A stretch of 47,112 bases of DNA from Escherichia phage e4/1c, in sequence record NC_024210.1. One strand, given 5' to 3'. A program made the translations under genes and the position numbers. The notes beneath the pieces are model-generated. The model was not told the DNA's origin. It did not search any database and saw nothing but the letters and a program-made list of their open reading frames with translations. Position 1 is the first letter of the stretch, and the number at the start of each line of letters is the position of its first letter. This document shows, in pieces, positions 1-45,675 of this stretch.

Positions 1-2
1 AC

Positions 3-539
3 ATGCCAGAAGAGAAAAAAATTCACCAGAAGATTGGTAACTTCAAGGAGCTTTACAATAAGAAGTATGGCGACATTGCCAATCTTAAGATTAACCACAG
101 ATACACTCCCGAGCAGGTCTTCGACATGGCTGTAAGGTATTTCAGCTGGGCTGAAGAGCAGGCAATTAAAGCTATCGAGACAGCAAGCTTTCAGGGTGTC
201 GTAACGGAAAACCTTGTTCACAAGCCGAGGGTATTTACGATAACTGGATTCCAGCTTTTCTGCGGCGTTGGTCATAATGCTATTAGCAAATGGCGCTCAT
301 CACCAGGATTCGATGAAGTTATGGAGTTCGTCGACTCAGTTATCTTTGAACAGAAGTACCAGTTGGGTGTTAACAACATCGTCAACCCTGGACTTATTGG
401 CAAAGACCTTGGTATTGATAAGCCACAAGAGGTTAACATCAATAACGCTTCAAATGCCGCAGTGAACGATGAAGAGGCGATGAAGGCCGCTCTGGCTTCT
501 GTAATGGATAAACTCGTATCTCTTGCTTCGTCTGCATGA
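3..539 (+). CDS. putative terminase small subunit (178 aa)
   Basis: ORF directly upstream of the large terminase; ATG at position 3 so upstream context is not visible; assignment by position only. Confidence 0.4.
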   Translation: MPEEKKIHQKIGNFKELYNKKYGDIANLKINHRYTPEQVFDMAVRYFSWAEEQAIKAIETASFQGVVTENLVHKPRVFTITGFQLFCGVGHNAISKWRSSPGFDEVMEFVDSVIFEQKYQLGVNNIVNPGLIGKDLGIDKPQEVNINNASNAAVNDEEAMKAALASVMDKLVSLASSA

Positions 540-609
540 TGATTAGATATTACATTTTCTGGTTTGTTGTTCCATCAATTGCCATTGGTGCACTAATGGA
601 GATGATTCA

Positions 610-2178
610 TTGAAGACATTAGTTTGGGAAGAAATGACGCCAGCCGAAAAGCTGGCAGTTAAGGCGCTATCCACTCACAGCTTCGAGGGATTCCTTAGGG
701 TGTGGTTCCAGCTATCTCAATCAGAACGATACATTCCTAACTGGCACCATAAATACCTATGCAGAATCATTGATGAGATAGTTTCTGGCGAGAGGAAGGA
801 TACGATTATAAATATTTCGCCGGGAGCCGGAAAAACCGAGATTACATCGATACACTTTCCGGTTTATTCGATGCTTAAGCTGAAGAAAGTAAGGAACCTT
901 AACCTTTCGTTCTCTGATAGCCTTGTAAAGCGCAACTCTAAGCGTGTTCGCGACCTTATCAAGTCAGTGGAGTTTCAAAGTCTTTTCCCATGCAGGTTTG
1001 GGACCTGTAAGGATGATGAAATTCAGGTTCTGGATGATTCTGGAAAGGTTAAATTTGAATCCATATCCAAGGCAATTGGCTCTCAGATTACGGGTAGTCG
1101 TGGTGGTTATATTACAGACACATATAGCGGATGCATCATGCTAGACGATATCGATAAAGCCGATGATATGTTTAGTAAGGTAAAGCGCGAGTCTGTTCAT
1201 ATGCTGCTAAAGAACACCATTCGCTCTCGTAGGGCAAGTAGCTTAAAGGGTAAATCAACTCCAATTATATCAATTCAGCAAAGGCTTCATACGCAGGATT
1301 CAACGTGGTTCATGACTTCTGGCGGCATGGGTATCGACTTTGATGTGGTTAAAATACCAGCACTGGTTACTGAGGACTATGTGAATGAGCTTCCTGACTG
1401 GATTCGCGAGCAGTTCGAAAAGGACGTCCTTTCATCTGAATCAGTTGAGCGTGACGGGGTCAGGTACTATAGCTACTTCCCGCAAAAGGAATCTGTGCAT
1501 GACTTGGTCGCCATGTGGGACTCAGACCCGTATACATTCCTAAGCCAGTACCAGCAAGCGCCAGTAGCCTTAGGTGGAAACCTGATTAACGTAGATTGGT
1601 TTGTTCGTCTTGATGAGAATAACAGGCCGCCAGTCAAGTATGACTACCGATTCATCACGGCTGATACTGCATTAACCACTAAGAGCTATAGTGACTATTC
1701 AGTGTTCATGTTGTGGGGAGTAAAGGACAGGAAGGCCTACGTGCTGGACATGGTTCGAGGTAAGTATGAGAGCCCGGAGCTAGAGAAGACGCTTGTTGAA
1801 TTTGAGGCCAAACACCGAGCAAACAACAAGACTAACGGCATCCTTAGGAAGATTATCATAGAGAAAAAGGCTTCAGGCATAGGTCTAATCCAGTCAGCGA
1901 GCAGGACGATGCGCACACCTATTGAGCCATACATCCCTGATGTCGACAAGCTTACTAGGGTTATGAGTGCACTGCCGCAGGTTAAGGCTGGTAACGTATT
2001 CCTACCGCAAGAAGCACCATGGCTAAATTCTTTCTTGTCTGAGTTTGCCGCCTTCACTGCCGATGGAACTCACAAACATGATGACATCGTGGATACATTC
2101 ACCATGGGCGTAAACCTTGAGTTGAACTTAGCAGATGATCCAAAAGCCAGGTTAATGAGGTTAGCCGGAGTTAAGTAG
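610..2178 (+). CDS. terL: terminase large subunit
   Basis: 522 aa; Walker A-like SPGAGKTE near N-terminus, acidic nuclease-type C-terminal half, position before portal; start may be TTG 610 or ATG 634. Confidence 0.85.
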   Translation: MKTLVWEEMTPAEKLAVKALSTHSFEGFLRVWFQLSQSERYIPNWHHKYLCRIIDEIVSGERKDTIINISPGAGKTEITSIHFPVYSMLKLKKVRNLNLSFSDSLVKRNSKRVRDLIKSVEFQSLFPCRFGTCKDDEIQVLDDSGKVKFESISKAIGSQITGSRGGYITDTYSGCIMLDDIDKADDMFSKVKRESVHMLLKNTIRSRRASSLKGKSTPIISIQQRLHTQDSTWFMTSGGMGIDFDVVKIPALVTEDYVNELPDWIREQFEKDVLSSESVERDGVRYYSYFPQKESVHDLVAMWDSDPYTFLSQYQQAPVALGGNLINVDWFVRLDENNRPPVKYDYRFITADTALTTKSYSDYSVFMLWGVKDRKAYVLDMVRGKYESPELEKTLVEFEAKHRANNKTNGILRKIIIEKKASGIGLIQSASRTMRTPIEPYIPDVDKLTRVMSALPQVKAGNVFLPQEAPWLNSFLSEFAAFTADGTHKHDDIVDTFTMGVNLELNLADDPKARLMRLAGVK

Positions 2179-2218
2179 CACGAATTGCTAAACACAAGGC
2201 TCATGGATGAGCTATTAT
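2176..2218 (+). promoter_or_regulatory. palindrome-type promoter unit (TAGCACGAATTGCTA, 22 bp, TATTAT) upstream of HNH gene
   Basis: palindrome 2176-2190 starts on terL stop codon TAG; -10-like TATTAT 2213-2218. Confidence 0.5.
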
Positions 2219-2241
2219 TAAAAGAAATGGAGGCGATTAAG

Positions 2242-2720
2242 ATGATTGAAAGATTCTTTGTAGATGATGATTTTTTTGTTAGGTGGGCTGACGGCCCAAA
2301 CAAGGGCAAGGTGGCACAAAAGATATCAAGGAATGGTTACGCAACGGTAAGGGCAAATGAAAAGGTAATGATGGCTCACAGAGTTGTCTATGAGTTAATG
2401 GTTGGTAATATACCTGACGGTATGGACATTGATCACATAAACCACAATAAGCTTGATAATAACCCATCGAACTTAAGGTGTGTAACAAGGTCAGAAAACA
2501 TGAGGAATATGAAAAAACCAGCAATAACACTAGCGGATTTACCGGGGTAACATTCAACAAGTCAAAAGGTAAGTGGCAGTGCCAGGCGCAAATAGATGGA
2601 AAGTATAAGTACTTAGGTTTGTTCGATGATTTAGATCAGGCTATATCAGCAAGGAAGAGATTTAATATTGATAATGGATTTCATGAAAATCATGGCAAGA
2701 CACTAAAAGCCAATGCGTGA
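2242..2720 (+). CDS. HNH-AP2 homing endonuclease, reading frame interrupted by -1 shift at A6 tract (2512-2517)
   Basis: HNH motif region HRVVYELMVGNIPDGMDIDHINHNKLDNNPSNLR in frame of 2185..2550; AP2-like part NTSGFTGVTFNKSKGKWQ continues in ORF 2478..2720; intact paralog at 26791..27294 shows the two parts are contiguous. Confidence 0.6.
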
Positions 2721-2726
2721 TACAAT

Positions 2727-2750
2727 GCCCCTTACTCAGGGGCTTTTTTA
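2727..2750 (+). terminator. rho-independent terminator
   Basis: GC stem gcccc/ggggc followed by T6. Confidence 0.7.
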
Positions 2751-2763
2751 TTGGAGAAATTAC

Positions 2764-3930
2764 ATGGTAAAAGCAGATAGCTACGCAAACATCTTTCTTA
2801 ATGGGAGTGATGGTAGCGAGATTTACGGAAAGCTTGGTGGGCTTGGGCTAACAGCTCCAGCGCAGCTTGAGCAGCTTTACGTCAACAGCGCACTGGTTCG
2901 CCGAATCATTGATATCGTGCCGGAGGTTGCACTTGGTGCTGGCTTTAACATCGAAGGCATCGGCGATGAAGGTGCTTTCTGGTCTCGATGGGATGATTTA
3001 GACCTTTCAGATAGCGTAATTGACGCCTTGGCGTGGGCAAGGTTATACGGTGGCGCAGCTGTAGTAGCAATCGTTAAGGATGGTAGGGCACTAACTAGCC
3101 CAGCTCGTGAAGGTGCGGAGCTCGAAACCGTTCGCGTATACGACCGGCAGCAAGTAAAAGTGCAGACTCGCGAGGAGAATCCACGAAACGCTCGATTTGG
3201 TAAGCCATTAACTTACCGCATCACGCCAAATGGTTCAGCTACGTTCTATGATGTACACTACACACGTTGCCATATCATTGATGGCGAGCGAGTGCCTAAC
3301 AATTTACGTCGTAATAACGATGGTTGGGGCGCAAGCGTGCTAACTAGTGACTTAATCGACGCGATTGACGACTATCAGAACTGCGAGAGACTGGCTACTC
3401 AGTTACTGCGTCGTAAACAGCAGGCTGTATGGAAAGCTAAGGGCCTTGCTGACTTGTGCGATGATTCGGATGGATTTGGCGCGGCTCGTTTACGTCTGGC
3501 TCAGGTAGATAATAACAGTGGCGTTGGTCAGGCTATCGGGATTGACGCGGAGAGTGAAGAGTACAACGTTCTCAACTCAGATATTGGCGGGATTGATACA
3601 TTTCTGAGTCAGAAGTTCGATCGAATCGTTGCTCTGAGCGGCATCCATGAAATTATTCTCAAGGCTAAGAATACTGGCGGTGTATCAGCTAGCCAAAATA
3701 CGGCTCTGGAAACTTTCTATGGTTACGTTGACCGCAAGCGCAAGGCTGAATTACTGCCCCTTCTTGAGTTCCTGCTTCCATTCATTGTAACTGAGCAGGA
3801 ATGGTCAGTAGAATTTAACCCTCTATCGCAGATTAGCGACAAGGATAAATCTGAGATTCTTGAGAAGAACGTCAATTCAGTTGCCGCATTGATTGCAGCT
3901 GGAATCATTGTTGCGCGCAATTTCAACTGA
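2764..3930 (+). CDS. portal protein
   Basis: 389 aa from ATG 2764 with RBS GGAGAAA; position after terL; size and acidic/aromatic content typical; ORF-track start 2713 would span the terminator. Confidence 0.7.
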   Translation: MVKADSYANIFLNGSDGSEIYGKLGGLGLTAPAQLEQLYVNSALVRRIIDIVPEVALGAGFNIEGIGDEGAFWSRWDDLDLSDSVIDALAWARLYGGAAVVAIVKDGRALTSPAREGAELETVRVYDRQQVKVQTREENPRNARFGKPLTYRITPNGSATFYDVHYTRCHIIDGERVPNNLRRNNDGWGASVLTSDLIDAIDDYQNCERLATQLLRRKQQAVWKAKGLADLCDDSDGFGAARLRLAQVDNNSGVGQAIGIDAESEEYNVLNSDIGGIDTFLSQKFDRIVALSGIHEIILKAKNTGGVSASQNTALETFYGYVDRKRKAELLPLLEFLLPFIVTEQEWSVEFNPLSQISDKDKSEILEKNVNSVAALIAAGIIVARNFN

Positions 3931-3974
3931 GGTTAAGATTGGCGAAGGCTCAATTCAAACGGAGGTTGTAATTA

Positions 3975-4739
3975 ATGAATCAGAAGACCCGCTGGATGTA
4001 TCCGCAAACAATTGAGAGCCAGATTAACCGCAGCCTTTTGGTTGCGGTATCTGAACTTATTGAGCAAATGAAGTTATCTGCAAAGAGGCTAAAAATTGAC
4101 ACAGCGCAGGAGATTGAAGAGGAAGATTCAGACCTTTCAGATGTAATCTCAGCGCTGCTATCTGGTTTTGTTTCCACTCTGCCTGCGCTGGCACTAGCAA
4201 TATATCGTTATAACTCGGCGCAATTCCTTAAGGTGGCCAACAACTCCGGAGGTAAGAATAATCCTGTAGTTCTTGCGCTAGGATTGTATGGTATTAACGC
4301 GGATGAACCATGGTGGCTCGACACCAGGAGCTCCTGGATTGTTGGCACGCAGTTAAGTGCATCAAAGCTGCTAAACAACATCAAGGATGATTTCATAAAC
4401 AACGCCATTACTGCGCAGGCTGGTAACACTGTTGACCTTGATGATAGATACCGAATCTACAGAAAGAGAACGGCAAATATCGCTGCTGGAATTACAGGGT
4501 CTCTAAACTCAAACCTTATGCGGAGAAGGCTTGAAGATGCCGGTGTATCTCAGTATGTTTGGCGTGGTAGACTTGACGACAAAGAGCGACCATCTCACGC
4601 TTTGCGTGAGGGGGTTAGCTTTAAATCAGATGGTTCGGACGCTGGAAAACTTGACGGCCTTGCGACATTCCCCGGTCAGCAATACGGGTGTCGTTGCTGG
4701 GCTGTTCCTAAATGGGAGAATTTAATTAATGAAGAGTAA
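3975..4739 (+). CDS. head morphogenesis protein (SPP1 gp7 / Mu F-like)
   Basis: 254 aa; C-terminal motif LREGVSFKSDGSDAGKLDGLATFPGQQYGCRCWAV typical of this family; follows portal. Confidence 0.7.
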   Translation: MNQKTRWMYPQTIESQINRSLLVAVSELIEQMKLSAKRLKIDTAQEIEEEDSDLSDVISALLSGFVSTLPALALAIYRYNSAQFLKVANNSGGKNNPVVLALGLYGINADEPWWLDTRSSWIVGTQLSASKLLNNIKDDFINNAITAQAGNTVDLDDRYRIYRKRTANIAAGITGSLNSNLMRRRLEDAGVSQYVWRGRLDDKERPSHALREGVSFKSDGSDAGKLDGLATFPGQQYGCRCWAVPKWENLINEE

Positions 4740-5838
4740 AATGCGTTATGATAGCGCCAAGGTAAAAGCCCATTTCGATGAGAACGGGTTTCTCGTGGAC
4801 ACTCCAGTGGTTGCTCGCGTAGGTGTACAAACCTACTATATGCCAGATGGTTCAGAGCGCCGAGAGTTCCGTCCGGCTTCAGAGGTTTTTAAAGCTGACT
4901 CCTTGCAAAGCTACCAGGGTAAGCCACTTACTCTGGGGCACGTTGTGGTTAACTCTGAAAATGCTAAAGAGGTTGTCGTTGGTTCTGTATCTGGATCAGC
5001 CATGCGTCAGGATTCGGCAGTGGTTGTTCCTCTTACCGTTTACGACAAGGAGGCAATTGAGAAGGCAAAGTCTGGCGTTGCTGGTGAGCTCTCGGTTGGA
5101 TATAACACCATTGATGTTGAATCTCCTGGTTGGGGCAGCAATGAAACAGGTGAGTATAAGCTGGACGGAGAATACGCAAGTCAGGATGAGATTCCTGCTG
5201 ATTGGGTACGCTTTGATGCACTGCAAACAAATATCGTTGTGAACCATGTCGCTCTTGTATATAAAGGTCGCGCAGGTATTGCTAAACTCAATCTGGACGC
5301 GGAACAGGAAAACCCGTATACTGATACCGTTCAATCAAATAAAGAGGATAAATTGATGATTAAGATTAAACTGGATGGCGAGAAGGAGTTCGAAATCGCC
5401 CCGGAAGTTGCTAAGCACATCGAGGCTGTTAAGGCTGATGCAGAGCAAGCAAAAGCCAAAGCTGACACCCTCGAAGCCGAGCGTGATGCACTGAAAGCTA
5501 AAGTTGATGGCATCCCAGCCGAAATCGAAGCTGCTGTAGCCAAAGCTAAAGCTGACGCTGACGAACTGGCCGCTCTGGTTGCTACCGCCGCAGAAGCTGG
5601 CGTTAAATGTGATGGTCTGGATGCTAAAGCAATCAAAGTTGCTTACGTTAAAGAAGTATCTGGCATTGAAGTTGCTGAGAAATCCGATGCGTACATCGAT
5701 GCGGCCTTTGATATCGCCAAATCTTCTGATAAAATGGCTGAAGCCCGTGTAGCAGTTGCTGGCGCGGAAAAATCTGATGCAGCACCGGAAGTTAAGACTC
5801 TTAACCCGCGTGCTCGCCTCGCTAAATTGAAAAAATAA
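4729..5838 (+). CDS. capsid scaffolding protein (globular N-domain plus Ala/Lys/Glu-rich coiled coil)
   Basis: C-terminal half is low-complexity AKA/EAE-rich heptad-like sequence; position between head morphogenesis gene and capsid genes. Confidence 0.55.
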   Translation: MKSKMRYDSAKVKAHFDENGFLVDTPVVARVGVQTYYMPDGSERREFRPASEVFKADSLQSYQGKPLTLGHVVVNSENAKEVVVGSVSGSAMRQDSAVVVPLTVYDKEAIEKAKSGVAGELSVGYNTIDVESPGWGSNETGEYKLDGEYASQDEIPADWVRFDALQTNIVVNHVALVYKGRAGIAKLNLDAEQENPYTDTVQSNKEDKLMIKIKLDGEKEFEIAPEVAKHIEAVKADAEQAKAKADTLEAERDALKAKVDGIPAEIEAAVAKAKADADELAALVATAAEAGVKCDGLDAKAIKVAYVKEVSGIEVAEKSDAYIDAAFDIAKSSDKMAEARVAVAGAEKSDAAPEVKTLNPRARLAKLKK

Positions 5839-5849
5839 GGAGTCTTAAT

Positions 5850-6374
5850 ATGGCAATTCGTTCCGTAGCACTGGCTGGTATGGTTTCTGACACTTCTCTG
5901 TATAACATCGACGGCGCCTGTGTAGTTGGCGGCGCAGCGGCAATTCCGGTTGGCACTGTCGTTGGTGTTACATCCGCTCAGCCTGTAGATGGTCACAAGG
6001 TTGTTGGCCTTCCCGCCGTAACTGGTACGCCAGTTAAACCTTATGGTGTTGTTGTTAAATCTCATTACGAGACCCCAGATGGTACGGCTCGCTTAAATGA
6101 AGCAGTTAACGTAATGACTCATGGTCGTATCTGGGTCCGCACCACCCTAGCATCTGCGCCAGTTTTTGGTAGCAAGGTTTTCGTAAACGCGAGTGGCGTT
6201 GTTGTTGCTGAGACGGCAGGCACTACTTGGGAGACCGGCTTTACATTTGCTGGCGGTTACGCTTCTGCTTATGCTAATAACGGCACTGACCCAATCAAGC
6301 AAGGTGAAAGCTACGATGGTGCAATCGTTGAGGTTCAGCTGATTCAATCCGCTGACTCAGCTGTCGCAGCTTAA
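5850..6374 (+). CDS. putative head structural/decoration protein
   Basis: 174 aa Gly/Val/Ala/Thr-rich beta-type sequence, strong RBS AAGGAG, in head module; function not resolvable from sequence. Confidence 0.35.
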   Translation: MAIRSVALAGMVSDTSLYNIDGACVVGGAAAIPVGTVVGVTSAQPVDGHKVVGLPAVTGTPVKPYGVVVKSHYETPDGTARLNEAVNVMTHGRIWVRTTLASAPVFGSKVFVNASGVVVAETAGTTWETGFTFAGGYASAYANNGTDPIKQGESYDGAIVEVQLIQSADSAVAA

Positions 6375-6380
6375 TTACAT

Positions 6381-6400
6381 GGCCCTTCGGGGCCTTTTTT
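6381..6400 (+). terminator. rho-independent terminator
   Basis: ggccc-ttcg-gggcc hairpin plus T6. Confidence 0.7.
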
Positions 6401-6413
6401 AATGGAGGCTTTT

Positions 6414-6560
6414 ATGATTTATTCATTCGATAAAATTTCAATCTCATACTACGACTCACCAGAATCTCTTATTGAAGAATTCAATCTCGAGGTTAAGGGT
6501 GTTCTTGATTCTGGTTTCAGGTATTTATATTCAGAACTCGCAGATGTTTTTTACTCATAA
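6414..6560 (+). CDS. hypothetical small protein (48 aa)
   Basis: ATG 6414 right after terminator; not in ORF track (below size cut-off); AT-rich. Confidence 0.25.
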   Translation: MIYSFDKISISYYDSPESLIEEFNLEVKGVLDSGFRYLYSELADVFYS

Positions 6561-6593
6561 CAAGAGTTAGGGCATGAAAAATCCCCAGACATA

Positions 6594-6983
6594 ATGGAGT
6601 CAAGATTCTTTGTGAGAACACTCCCACTCTCGGATAAGTCATCATCTGGAAGGGAAATTGAATCCATAGTTGCCAAGATATATGTTAAAGATATTGATTA
6701 CGGTTATGATGGTGGCCCATCCTTGCAAGAGTTAATTGATTCATTTTGCGTTGAAAATGGTTACGGCTACGTTCCGGCATCCGCAGGATCAAATGCAAGC
6801 GTCATAAATAAGGAAGAGAGTGAACCATTCGCTGTTCTTGAGAACGGGAAGTGGGTAACCTACCATAGAGCAAAGAAAAGACAAGCGACATTTGTGACTT
6901 ACATTAAATACTCAAAAGATTCATTGCAGAAAAAGTCTGGCTGGGCTTTAGTTAAGTACGAAGAAGTTGACGCTCCAGAGTAA
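6594..6983 (+). CDS. hypothetical protein (129 aa), possible moron
   Basis: ORF bracketed by two terminators inside head module; AT-rich relative to neighbours. Confidence 0.4.
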   Translation: MESRFFVRTLPLSDKSSSGREIESIVAKIYVKDIDYGYDGGPSLQELIDSFCVENGYGYVPASAGSNASVINKEESEPFAVLENGKWVTYHRAKKRQATFVTYIKYSKDSLQKKSGWALVKYEEVDAPE

Positions 6984-6988
6984 ATTTA

Positions 6989-7011
6989 AACCTCCTTCGG
7001 GAGGTTTTTTT
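6989..7011 (+). terminator. rho-independent terminator
   Basis: cctcc-ttcg-ggagg hairpin plus T7. Confidence 0.7.
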
Positions 7012-7064
7012 ACACCTATAATCTGTTAGACTTATCAGGTCTATTAACTAATCAGGAGATTAAG

Positions 7065-8582
7065 ATGGCTTTAGAATTTAAGCAAATCCTTGCCGGTAAC
7101 ACAGCTTCACTTAGCCACAAGGTGCTAGAGGCAATTGCGGAAGGTTGGCAGCCGTTCGATAGAGTCTTGACCGGAACTGGATCTAACACTATTGGCATGG
7201 TTGTAGCTAAGGGAACTAACGCAGACATTACCGACTTCATGGTTCTGAGTGCAACCAGTCGCCAAAAGCTAATTGATAGAGTAAATGAAATCACTCACGA
7301 AGGTTGGGAGGTGTTTGGCGAACCTTCATCTGAGTCAAATCAGTTTGCAGTTTCTTTAACTAAGGGTTTTCAGGGTACATCTGGTAGGGATGGAATGGCA
7401 GGACCACAAGGCCCACAAGGTCCACGTGGCGAGGTTGGCCCTGAAGGTCCGCAGGGTCCAAAAGGCGACGATGGTACGCCTGGTGAAAAGGGTGAGCGTG
7501 GAGCGGTAGGGCCACAAGGCACGGTTGGGCCTCAAGGCATTCAGGGACCTCAAGGTATTCAAGGACCAGCCGGATTGAAGGGTGACAAAGGTGATAGGGG
7601 TGATACTGGCCCACAGGGACCGCAAGGCTTGAAGGGTGACACTGGAGAGAAAGGTGATCCTGGCGAAGTCGGGCCTGCTGGTTTAACATTCCGTGGGCAA
7701 TGGGTTCCCGCCACTGATTATACAAAAGATGACACTGTAGTTTACGGTGGATCAACCTACTTCGCAGTTAGCAACATTGCAGCAGATGAGGAGCCTGGAG
7801 TATCACCTTTGTGGGTTGTTCTTGCCGCTCAGGGAACTAAGGGTGATAAGGGTGAAAAAGGTGATCCTGGCGATACTGGGCCTCAAGGCGAGAAAGGTGA
7901 TACAGGACCGCAGGGGCCAAGAGGAATTCAGGGTCAGCAAGGCATTCAAGGCTTGCCTGGTGATCAAGGACCAAAAGGTGATCAAGGATTGCAAGGTATC
8001 GCCGGACCAACCGGACCACAAGGCCCTAAAGGTGATACCGGACCGCAGGGCATTCAAGGTCAGCAGGGTATTCGTGGGTTAACTGGCCCAGCCGGTCCAC
8101 AAGGTCCTCAGGGTGGAAGGGGTGACGATGGCCCTCAGGGTGTAAAAGGTGATAAAGGTGATAAAGGTGATAAAGGTGATGCTCCTTACACATTATTTAA
8201 CTCAAGTAACGTGACGACGACATATATTGAAATACCCATCCCACAAGTAACAAACACTGTCCTAAGGGTTAGGCTTTCTGGTGCCAACTTTGAATACAGC
8301 GTTTTGAGCAAAGGTGGAGCGAATAGATATGTTGACTTTTACACATTCATTCCGTCATTAACCAGTTCAACTGGTAACATCTATACAGGAACGACTACCC
8401 TGACGCCAACTGGTAGCCTTTTTTTGGGTAACTCTCCTGTAGCTCTTGGGTTGAGGGAATTGACAATAACACTCAAGGAGTGGGGTGATAGGACTCTAAC
8501 CACAATAAAGGCTATACATCACGGAAGAACAGGTGATAACACAAGGCCTTTGCAGATAACTATGTTTAGTAATAAGTATTAA
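7065..8582 (+). CDS. collagen-like repeat protein (two Gly-X-Y blocks), putative head/virion fibre
   Basis: 505 aa; long runs GPQGPQGPRGEVGPEGPQGPKGDDG... (approx aa 106-205 and 258-365) separated by a non-collagenous insert; 130-aa C-terminal non-repeat domain. Confidence 0.8.
   Translation: MALEFKQILAGNTASLSHKVLEAIAEGWQPFDRVLTGTGSNTIGMVVAKGTNADITDFMVLSATSRQKLIDRVNEITHEGWEVFGEPSSESNQFAVSLTKGFQGTSGRDGMAGPQGPQGPRGEVGPEGPQGPKGDDGTPGEKGERGAVGPQGTVGPQGIQGPQGIQGPAGLKGDKGDRGDTGPQGPQGLKGDTGEKGDPGEVGPAGLTFRGQWVPATDYTKDDTVVYGGSTYFAVSNIAADEEPGVSPLWVVLAAQGTKGDKGEKGDPGDTGPQGEKGDTGPQGPRGIQGQQGIQGLPGDQGPKGDQGLQGIAGPTGPQGPKGDTGPQGIQGQQGIRGLTGPAGPQGPQGGRGDDGPQGVKGDKGDKGDKGDAPYTLFNSSNVTTTYIEIPIPQVTNTVLRVRLSGANFEYSVLSKGGANRYVDFYTFIPSLTSSTGNIYTGTTTLTPTGSLFLGNSPVALGLRELTITLKEWGDRTLTTIKAIHHGRTGDNTRPLQITMFSNKY
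8148..8179 (+). repeat. tandem 9-bp repeat (GGTGATAAA)x3.5 inside collagen-like gene
   Basis: encodes GDKGDKGDKGD; slippage-prone. Confidence 0.8.
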
Positions 8583-26101: not shown

Positions 26102-26749
26102 ATGAAGACTTCGGAAAGTAATAAGTCAGTTTTACAGGCGCTTTTTAAGGCCCGCACAGGCTTCGCTAAGGCGGCAAGAGACAAGCAAAACAGTCACCTT
26201 AAGAATCGATACGCTACACTTGACTCCATGCTGGAGGCCGTAGTGCCAGCGCTTGATGACAATGACTTAATGATTATGCAGAGTATGTTAGAGACATCAA
26301 CTTCTGATAATCTTAATGTCGAAACAACTCTTTATCACGTTTCTGGTGAGTGGGTTAGCTTCTTTATGATTATGCCGATTGTTAAGAAAGACCCGCAAGG
26401 CGTAGGCTCAGCATTCACATATGCACGACGCTACTCATTGGCCGCAGCGCTTGGAATTAGCCAATCAGACGACGATGCTCAGATGGCGGTTAAGAGTGTA
26501 AAGGACTGGAAGCGAGAAGTAGAGAAGGCAGAGACTCGCGATGAACTTGTAGAGGTTTACAAGGCATGTAAATCACAAGCCGATGCCGCAACATGGGGTA
26601 TCGTTGAGAAAGCTATCATCGAAAAGCTAGCTGAGATAAAAATGGCATCAGCAAGTGGCTTCAACCCAGCAAAGCCTAAAGAAGTAACTAAAGTTGTTGC
26701 AAATGCACCGAGTGAGGCTGTAGAATCACAATCAATAGAAAAGTTCTGA
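26102..26749 (+). CDS. erf: ERF-family single-strand annealing protein
   Basis: 215 aa; motif GSAFTYARRYSLAAALG characteristic of Erf-type recombinases. Confidence 0.75.
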   Translation: MKTSESNKSVLQALFKARTGFAKAARDKQNSHLKNRYATLDSMLEAVVPALDDNDLMIMQSMLETSTSDNLNVETTLYHVSGEWVSFFMIMPIVKKDPQGVGSAFTYARRYSLAAALGISQSDDDAQMAVKSVKDWKREVEKAETRDELVEVYKACKSQADAATWGIVEKAIIEKLAEIKMASASGFNPAKPKEVTKVVANAPSEAVESQSIEKF

Positions 26750-26790
26750 ATTAATCGGGGCTTCGGCCCCAGAATAAAACGATAGTCATT

Positions 26791-27294
26791 ATGGCTGGAT
26801 ATATAAAGTACGATGATTTCTCAAAGTACTTGCATTTAGATAATGATGGTGATTTGTGCTGGAGCGTAAGCGTAAAATCATCTAAAGTTGGTAAGATGAA
26901 AGGCTCACCTGACAATTACGGTTATAAGCATTTTCACCTATTTGGAAAGAGATGGAAATTTCATAGAGTAATATACTGCCTACATAACAAGTGCGACCTA
27001 GATAGCTCAATTGAGGTTGACCATATTGATTTAGATAAAAGCAATAACAAACCATCAAATTTAAGAATTGCATCAAGGCACGATAACCAACAGAATAGAG
27101 GTAAGAATAAAAACAACACTAGCGGATACAAGGGAGTTTGCTTTCATTCAAAAACTGGCTGCTACTTTGGTAGAGTCTTGTTTGATGGCAAGGTTTACTC
27201 AACCAAATACCACAAACTAGAAGTAGATGCACACAAAGAACTTTGCAAAATCAGATCTAAATTTAAATCAACTTATGTAAACAACGGAGAATAA
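26791..27294 (+). CDS. HNH-AP2 homing endonuclease (intact)
   Basis: 167 aa; HRVIYCLHNKCDLDSSIEVDHIDLDKSNNKPSNLR (HNH) followed by NTSGYKGVCFHSKTGCYFGRV (AP2-like). Confidence 0.8.
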   Translation: MAGYIKYDDFSKYLHLDNDGDLCWSVSVKSSKVGKMKGSPDNYGYKHFHLFGKRWKFHRVIYCLHNKCDLDSSIEVDHIDLDKSNNKPSNLRIASRHDNQQNRGKNKNNTSGYKGVCFHSKTGCYFGRVLFDGKVYSTKYHKLEVDAHKELCKIRSKFKSTYVNNGE

Positions 27295-27295
27295 G

Positions 27296-27718
27296 ATGCA
27301 TACTTTAACTGGAAATATCCGCAAAGCGCCTTTCACAAAGACTGGGGAAAACAGTAAAGGCCAGTGGAAGATGTATAAGGTTGAACTTTCAGAGTCATAT
27401 AAAAATAAAGAAGGTGAAAGGAAATACACAAATTACTCAGTAACATTTTTTGCCAGTGAAGCGCAGATTAGTTGGTATGACGAAGCATTTCAGGAAGGTA
27501 AGGTTATCTCTGTGAGCGGTGACTCATTAGCAGTTAACGAGCGGGAACATAATGGTAAGTCATATATTACACTTGAGTTGCAGAATCCGCGATTGATGTT
27601 TAGCCAGCGAGGCGGGGAATTAGCACCACAGCAACAACAACAGCAACCACAGCAACAGCAGCGACAGCAGCCACAGCAACAAAGCCGATTTACTGAAGAA
27701 GATGATATCCCGTTCTGA
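27296..27718 (+). CDS. ssb: single-stranded DNA-binding protein
   Basis: 140 aa; OB-fold-like N-domain, Gln-rich linker, acidic tail EEDDIPF (canonical SSB C-terminus). Confidence 0.85.
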   Translation: MHTLTGNIRKAPFTKTGENSKGQWKMYKVELSESYKNKEGERKYTNYSVTFFASEAQISWYDEAFQEGKVISVSGDSLAVNEREHNGKSYITLELQNPRLMFSQRGGELAPQQQQQQPQQQQRQQPQQQSRFTEEDDIPF

Positions 27719-45603: not shown

Positions 45604-45643
45604 CACGAATTGCTAAACATAAATCGCAAGGATGCGTTACTAT
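45601..45643 (+). promoter_or_regulatory. palindrome-type promoter unit
   Basis: TAGCACGAATTGCTA, 22 bp, TACTAT, then TTATCGAAATGAGACGAGGA. Confidence 0.5.
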
Positions 45644-45675
45644 TAATTTATCGAAATGAGACGAGGAAAGATTAA

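Follow-up and report, generated by a model that had tools for sequence, protein, structure and literature searches.

The genome of Escherichia phage e4/1c, a T1-like coliphage of the Rogunavirinae (47,112 bp; this whole stretch was analysed and is called the window here), carries two short coding frames between the genes for the large terminase subunit (terL) and the portal protein. GenBank lists them as two adjacent genes, encoding a 115-aa 'putative endonuclease' and an 80-aa 'putative HNH endonuclease'. The locus raises the question of whether these are two genes or a single homing endonuclease gene parted by a frameshift at a run of six adenines and, in the latter case, whether the frameshift is an element of expression, a step in the decay of the gene, or an error in the deposited sequence. 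The initial annotation, made from the sequence alone, had proposed the split gene and had named all three explanations.

One HNH-AP2 gene in two frames

Translation in frame 1 from the ATG at 2242, which has GGAGG upstream at 2229-2233, ends at the stop codon at 2548-2550, and the 102-aa product terminates in ...MRNMKKPAITLADLPG, of which the last ten residues (PAITLADLPG) are an out-of-frame tail. The Pfam HNH_3 match of this product spans positions 2-46 of the 46-position profile and includes the complete motif D64 H65 ... N77 ... N86 N89. All five residues are invariant in the family alignment described below and are encoded 5' of the frame break, and the catalytic HNH (His-Me finger) motif of the e4/1c gene is accordingly predicted to be intact. 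The break lies within GAAAAAACC at 2511-2519. As had been claimed, the HNH frame stops shortly past this run, while the -1 frame, reading ...EKTSNNTSGFTGV... from the run onward, continues as an AP2-like half; the two frames overlap by 85 nt (2463-2547). Coordinates are collected in Table 1.

Table 1. Features of the terL-portal region of e4/1c and of the second HNH-AP2 gene in the window
Feature	Coordinates	Strand	Remarks
terL (large terminase subunit)	610-2178	+	left flank; stop TAG 2176-2178; Pfam Terminase_6C, E 2.7e-8
Inserted cassette, ~540 bp	2179-2717	+	relative to Rogunavirus genomes that lack it, from alignment with AKS96, phiJLA23 and Sd1; boundaries approximate
Leader module	2180-2218	+	ACGAATTGCTAAACACAA, 5-bp hairpin GCTCA-TGGA-TGAGC (2199-2212), TATTAT
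HNH half	2242-2550	+	102-aa ORF; Pfam HNH_3, E 7e-22
AP2-like half, open -1 frame (frame 3)	2463-2720	+	coding from 2517 (ACC = Thr); stop TGA 2718-2720
A6 run	2512-2517	+	Lys-Lys linker between domains; site of the frame break; A7 (intact) or A8 in relatives
Intrinsic terminator	2727-2749	+	GCCCCTTACTCAGGGGC then T6; terminator scan; identical element annotated in AKS96
Portal gene	2764-3930	+	right flank; Pfam Phage_portal_3, E 6.4e-68
Second HNH-AP2 gene, intact, 167 aa	26791-27294	+	inserted between recombinase and SSB genes

The expectation that one extra A would restore a single reading frame was borne out. Insertion of one A at the run yields a 159-aa ORF that joins HNH and AP2 through the junction peptide ...NMKKTSNNTSGF..., and the restored protein is 91% identical to an intact 159-aa natural allele with seven adenines; it aligns through the junction with this allele, with 22 homologues and with the product of the gene at 26791-27294. 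Taken by itself, the AP2 half of e4/1c gives a weak Pfam match (E 1.6e-3, under the gathering score, for the single sequence). The AP2 domain is present in e4/1c, but in the -1 frame and hence on a different polypeptide from the HNH domain, and it takes the extra A, as in the restored sequence or the A7 relative, to fuse the two.

A search with the restored protein against 5.8 billion proteins returned 25 relatives. In an alignment of 24 sequences the conservation runs unbroken over the junction (NLRxVTxSENxxNxxxxxNNTSGFxGV); HNH_3 is found in all 24 family members and AP2 in 14 of them, with a best E of 8.4e-9. When the family profile was compared with proteins of known structure, its N-terminal part matched the HNH homing endonuclease I-HmuI (1U3E, E 6.7e-10) and its C-terminal part matched AP2 domains, including WRI1 (7WQ5, E 7.7e-8) and TEM1. 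By these profile comparisons, the e4/1c locus is assigned to an HNH_3-AP2 homing family. Like members of this family, I-HmuI of Bacillus phage SPO1 combines a nuclease with a DNA-binding region in a single chain; it is, however, intron-encoded, nicks one strand, and has a helix-turn-helix rather than an AP2 domain as its C-terminal DNA-binding region. Independent translation of the AP2 half was considered as a candidate and rejected: its frame contains no ATG, and the sole possible start, GTG at 2478, has AAGG directly abutting it.

The two GenBank genes of e4/1c are therefore one broken HNH-AP2 homing gene, as had been proposed. Because GenBank lists the halves as separate genes, they would be better joined and marked as one disrupted gene, and this correction of the annotation is the main value of the analysis.

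The window contains a second HNH-AP2 gene, which had been described as an intact paralog of the broken one. It is intact and has an identical architecture, but its product shares only 36% identity with that of the broken gene over 101 aa, and it is therefore a distant member of the family and not a close copy. It is flanked by a recombinase gene (26102-26749) and an SSB gene (27296-27718), with a GC-rich hairpin at 26755-26772 ahead of the insert, and the annotation of the relative AKS96 shows no gene in the 47-nt gap from recombinase to SSB. Near-identical products of this second gene occur on about 10 metagenomic contigs of ~47.1 kb.

An inserted cassette between terL and portal

The broken gene lies in a cassette whose 5' edge falls directly past the terL stop and whose 3' edge is the point where the ancestral sequence resumes (TGATA(A/C)A..TGCCCC / TGATA(A/C)A..TGCCCCTTACTCAGGGGCTTTTTT). 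Its placement between terL and portal had been stated correctly. No counterpart of the cassette exists in AKS96, whose terL is 92% identical to that of e4/1c at the amino-acid level, or in phiJLA23; both are annotated as passing from terL to a terminator to portal. Megablast returned 27 matching phage records, with all matches in the flanks and none covering 80% of the query, and among the matches listed the flank matches come in two pieces. In the remaining 25 matching phage records, the flank spans found by megablast are too short for the cassette. With the cassette alone as the query, blastn against 50,697 phage records found only 50-70-nt matches to other HNH genes. Three metagenomic contigs (L004, L005 and L006) carry the cassette at this site, and in Sd1 the site holds a different, unrelated gene of 108 aa. 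Its presence thus varies among close relatives at a defined site, which marks it as mobile.

The cassette had also been credited with its own promoter and terminator. The latter claim fails: the terminator at 2727-2749 has an identical counterpart in the cassette-less AKS96, indicating that it is ancestral to the terL-portal region. The former holds in part, in that the hairpin motif of the leader is real and repeated, but it belongs to a shared intergenic module and is not specific to the cassette. A promoter scan finds the leader promoter-like and weakly similar to sigma-70 promoters (TAAACA-18 nt-TATTAT, 9 of 12 matches). The module recurs at 45605-45650 and is found also in Sd1, L004 and L005; in Sd1 it fronts the unrelated 108-aa gene at the terL-portal site and shows three compensatory changes in the stem. 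At 2180-2218, at 45605-45650 and at 2182-2230 of Sd1, the module stands directly past a TAG stop and before a small gene, and it has the consensus CACGAATTGCTAAA(C/T)A(C/T)AA, a 5-bp hairpin with an NGGA loop, and a TATTAT-like hexamer. Its stems covary (GCTCA/TGAGC, CGCA/TGCG and CGCCA/TGGCG). On this pattern it resembles a portable unit, either a promoter or a regulatory element, placed before different cargo genes. Rfam returned nothing relevant in this region; its lone match, to CRISPR-DR47 at 2220-2252, is below threshold (24.9 bits, with 39 required) and was taken as chance.

As a possible signature of co-conversion, we compared identity within and around the cassette, and found that it is 91-97% identical among carriers, compared with 75-95% in the mosaic flanks, a pattern that is suggestive of co-conversion but short of decisive. 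In a comparison of positions 1-7600 of the window with L004, L005 and AKS96, terL is strongly mosaic: its identity to every relative is about 75% at 800-1200 and 90-95% at 1600-2000. The deposited sequence of phiJLA23 (KC333879.1) shows at 2180-2355 a duplication of the terL 3' end and terminator with runs of N between, which is probably an assembly problem in that deposit.

An HNH gene also adjoins the terminase or portal genes in HK97-like phages (gp74 type). The gp74-type proteins are conserved packaging cofactors without an AP2 domain; most close relatives, in contrast, lack the e4/1c gene, which is a member of the HNH_3-AP2 homing family. On account of its absence from most relatives, we rejected a function of the gene as a terminase-associated packaging factor.

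Tract-length alleles and selection on the AP2 half

Two metagenomic relatives, with ~92% nucleotide identity to e4/1c, carry the same cassette at the terL-portal site, and they differ from e4/1c and from each other in the length of the run. L004 (Logan SRR29757536) has A7 and an intact 159-aa gene, the natural allele (P0001) to which the restored e4/1c protein was compared. In L005 and L006, from ENA assemblies, the run is A8 and the gene encodes a 97-aa product ending in ...MKKNQQQH. This A8 product is present on 14 contigs, and the two A8 loci that were read, 100% identical to each other over 5.85 kb, come from assemblies with different naming schemes (k111_ and NODE_ contigs), indicating that one strain was recovered repeatedly and therefore that natural phages do exist in which this run is out of frame. 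Each of the three lineages thus has a tract length of its own: one is in frame, one is shifted by -1 and one by +1.

In the alignment, the 22 other family members all have a different linker that lacks the run, which is therefore confined to the clade of e4/1c, L004 and L005/L006. With an intact A7 allele and an oppositely shifted A8 allele in relatives, the linker tract is, as read from these alignments, a hypermutable tract with three length alleles and not a conserved recoding site. Exact-pattern scans of IMG/VR, JGI metagenome contigs and GTDB genome contigs yielded no further tract alleles. Relatives sharing the six-A configuration had been named as a check on the locus; none was found, the other carriers having A7 or A8. 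Look-ups of exact products (the e4/1c HNH half, terL, terS and the prohead protease) matched no other contigs and so provide no independent assembly of an e4/1c-like phage; one deposited genome is the whole basis of the A6 state. In L004 the A7 allele has a 9-bp tandem duplication (TAGGTGATTAAGGTGATTAAGATG, within 4975-5000) in the ribosome-binding region, just upstream of the start.

To quantify the selective pressure on the half that lies beyond the break, we compared substitutions among the three alleles. Read in its own frame, the AP2 half gave dN/dS values of 0.12-0.18 for each of the three pairs, similar to those of the HNH half, and the same substitutions read in the other two frames were mostly non-synonymous. 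On the terminal branches, the AP2 half has accumulated four synonymous and one non-synonymous change in the A6 lineage and five and three in the A8 lineage, which are small counts (5 and 8). Of the 14 changes that separate the A6 from the A8 allele, 9 are synonymous, compared with a neutral expectation of ~20% that transition bias would lift somewhat (P = 3.5e-4). The AP2 half of e4/1c is free of other lesions. Judged from these substitutions, the AP2 half has been under selection for most of the divergence of the alleles, and it follows that the breaks are recent, reversible, leaky or, in the case of e4/1c, not real. A pseudogene long dead would not be expected to show purifying selection, as both shifted branches do. 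That two of three lineages are broken at one identical site, with no other lesion, would agree as well with leaky expression or a reversible switch. The A6/A7/A8 series, together with the purifying selection that persists downstream of it, is the one feature of the locus that merits attention.

Explanations of the break

We consider it probable that an HNH-AP2 homing gene inserted after the terL stop was broken by the loss of an A at an indel-prone run, and that the locus represents ordinary decay. In this account, whose homing steps draw on general knowledge of free-standing homing endonucleases, a free-standing HNH-AP2 gene would have inserted immediately 3' of the terL stop of a Rogunavirinae (T1-like) phage. 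In a cell infected at the same time by a cassette-less phage, the intact enzyme (A7, 159 aa) would recognize, through its AP2 domain, a site close to the terL-portal junction of the cassette-less genome; cleavage there by the HNH domain would be followed by recombinational repair, through which the cut genome would acquire a copy of the cassette. AAAAAAACC encodes the Lys-Lys-Thr linker that joins the two domains, and its run of seven adenines would be the most indel-prone site of the gene; it would have lost one A in e4/1c and gained one in another strain. With A6 in e4/1c, translation from the ATG at 2242 ends at 2548-2550, and the product would be the 102-aa nuclease core without its DNA-binding domain, full-length enzyme arising only through rare, non-programmed -1 events within the 2463-2547 overlap. 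Since the AP2 half is free of other lesions and bears the mark of purifying selection, the break would have to be young or occasionally reverting, a normal early stage in the decay of homing genes once homing is no longer needed. Of the three explanations offered in the initial annotation, that of a decaying pseudogene fits best, although the A7 and A8 relatives make it more exact to speak of a mutation at a hypermutable run. Under this explanation nothing at the locus changes what is known of recoding or homing, and the A6/A7/A8 series would serve as a clean, small example of homing genes failing first at their most mutable site.

Precedent for such decay comes from Vibrio phage ICP1. HNH-AP2 homing endonucleases are placed in phages, cyanobacteria and ciliates by Magnani et al. 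2004, as cited in PMC10448857. The HNH-AP2 homing genes of ICP1 have been reported to be unstable through frameshifts, and its gp115 (HNH) and gp116 (AP2) were interpreted as one frameshift-inactivated gene (PMC10448857). The e4/1c gene shares with these IPA-HNH genes an N-terminal HNH and a C-terminal AP2 domain, a free-standing position adjoining essential phage genes, and variable presence among close relatives, and in gp115-gp116, as in e4/1c, a frameshift parts HNH from AP2. The two differ in that the HNH domain of e4/1c is of the canonical Pfam HNH_3 type, a profile from which the ICP1 genes have diverged too far, and in that the e4/1c break lies in a homopolymer for which an intact A7, a -1 A6 and a +1 A8 allele exist. 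With a frameshift-split HNH/AP2 gene already described in ICP1, the e4/1c locus adds a further case to a known kind.

That the phage truly has A7 and an intact gene, the deposited consensus being short by one base, is the strongest of the alternatives, though we regard it as unlikely. The 454 chemistry miscalls runs of six or more, which would count in favor of such an artefact, as do the lack of any other defect in the AP2 half and its purifying selection. The 454 GS-FLX was the platform used for the sister phage e11/2, which comes from the same laboratory (PMC4241651), but we found no genome paper or platform statement for e4/1c itself, whose sequencing by 454 is assumed by analogy with e11/2. 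The assembly may also be imperfect 1.2 kb downstream, where the essential portal gene has a 23-bp gap. On the other hand, the window contains 37 A/T runs of at least six, and a comparison with 64 AKS96 proteins revealed no other homopolymer frame break; the only loci split across frames were the HNH-AP2 gene and the portal 3' end. Furthermore, the A8 frameshift at the same run is real elsewhere, being identical in two assemblies with its product on 14 contigs.

The portal gap is an observation in its own right. Within 3900-4015 of the window, after about 3913 (GGAATCATT|GTTGCGCGC), 23 bp found in the portal genes of AKS96 and L005 are missing, which shifts the frame so that the ORF ends at 3930; the event is near the 3' end and is not of the homopolymer type. 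The last 34 aa of the AKS96 portal protein are encoded with 100% identity in another frame at 3911-4012. Either the assembly is at fault here, or this essential gene has truly been truncated at its C-terminal end.

A more remote alternative is that the run acts as a reversible on/off tract (a contingency locus), replication slippage flipping it among A6, A7 and A8. It is conceivable, if improbable, that a minority of endonuclease-ON genomes would be favored in co-infection and an OFF majority in clonal growth. Three length alleles in three lineages with no other lesion agree with such a tract, as does the persistence of purifying selection on the terminal branches of both OFF alleles; these are, however, only three lineages with small counts, and the run is not conserved across the family. 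In addition, A7 runs change length far less than contingency tracts with more than nine repeats. There is a slim chance that the run serves either as a reversible tract of this kind or as a leak valve operating by non-programmed frameshifting, with an endonuclease that is mostly silent but recoverable. A reversible or leaky tract would explain the purifying selection on an AP2 half that is unread in both A6 and A8. If tract length proved heterogeneous within phage populations, the locus would offer a tractable case of phase-variable expression of a selfish gene in a virulent phage.

The least probable explanation is that the shifted gene is the functional state, a set fraction of product being made full-length so that a toxic nuclease is kept at a low dose. 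The route would be either -1 ribosomal frameshifting or transcriptional insertion of an A at the run. The Lys-tRNA on A runs is shift-prone, the 85-nt overlap leaves room for a shift, and the AP2 half is under purifying selection, all of which would favor slippage. Non-programmed -1 suppression of single-base deletions reaches 1-10% in aggregate in E. coli test genes (PMC10861913), which also counts for slippage, and a small non-programmed -1 leak at the e4/1c locus is possible. The features of a programmed site, however, are missing. The zero frame reads AUG AAA AAA CCA, so that the canonical heptamer A AAA AAG/C is out of register and no slippery X XXY YYZ lies in register at the run; because the base before the run is G, the P-site tRNA would have to re-pair with GAA. 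RNA folds on either side of the run were no better than those of shuffled sequences (z +0.4 to +2.5), and slippage would thus have no downstream structure to stimulate it. The only upstream candidate, GAGGA at 2502-2506, is just 5 nt from the run and absent from relatives; Shine-Dalgarno spacing of the dnaX type is ~10-14 nt, and 5 nt is too close.

Nor is the two-frame layout conserved, since the A7 allele needs no shift at all and the A8 allele would require one in the other direction. In published reporter data, slippage by E. coli RNA polymerase was undetectable on runs shorter than T7 or A8, and deletion slippage was not seen on poly(A) runs (PMC6260861), so that A6 is too short for slippage by the host enzyme; the annotation of the close relative AKS96 lists no RNA polymerase gene. 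In E. coli dnaX, Thermus dnaX, IS elements and Shigella mxiE, an A run likewise stands at the junction of overlapping frames. Those sites, which work by -1 frameshifting in E. coli dnaX and by transcriptional slippage in the others, are conserved among relatives, unlike that of e4/1c, and they have either runs of at least nine or a heptamer that is in register and flanked by stimulators, features that e4/1c lacks. The non-conserved layout, the absence of heptamer and structure, and the short run argue that the break is not programmed, and the suggestion of a slippage-dependent gene is not supported.

In further agreement with the decay account, splitting of an HNH-AP2 gene was also seen in another drexlervirid, phage AN_ECEAS (PP944860.1, 562-1022), where the gene is divided between two frames just before the IDHINH motif, at a different place from the break in e4/1c, and where the first 69 aa alone are annotated, as a 'putative HNH endonuclease'. 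Phage ES (OR466728.1) gives a two-piece match with the same query coordinates and identity as AN_ECEAS.
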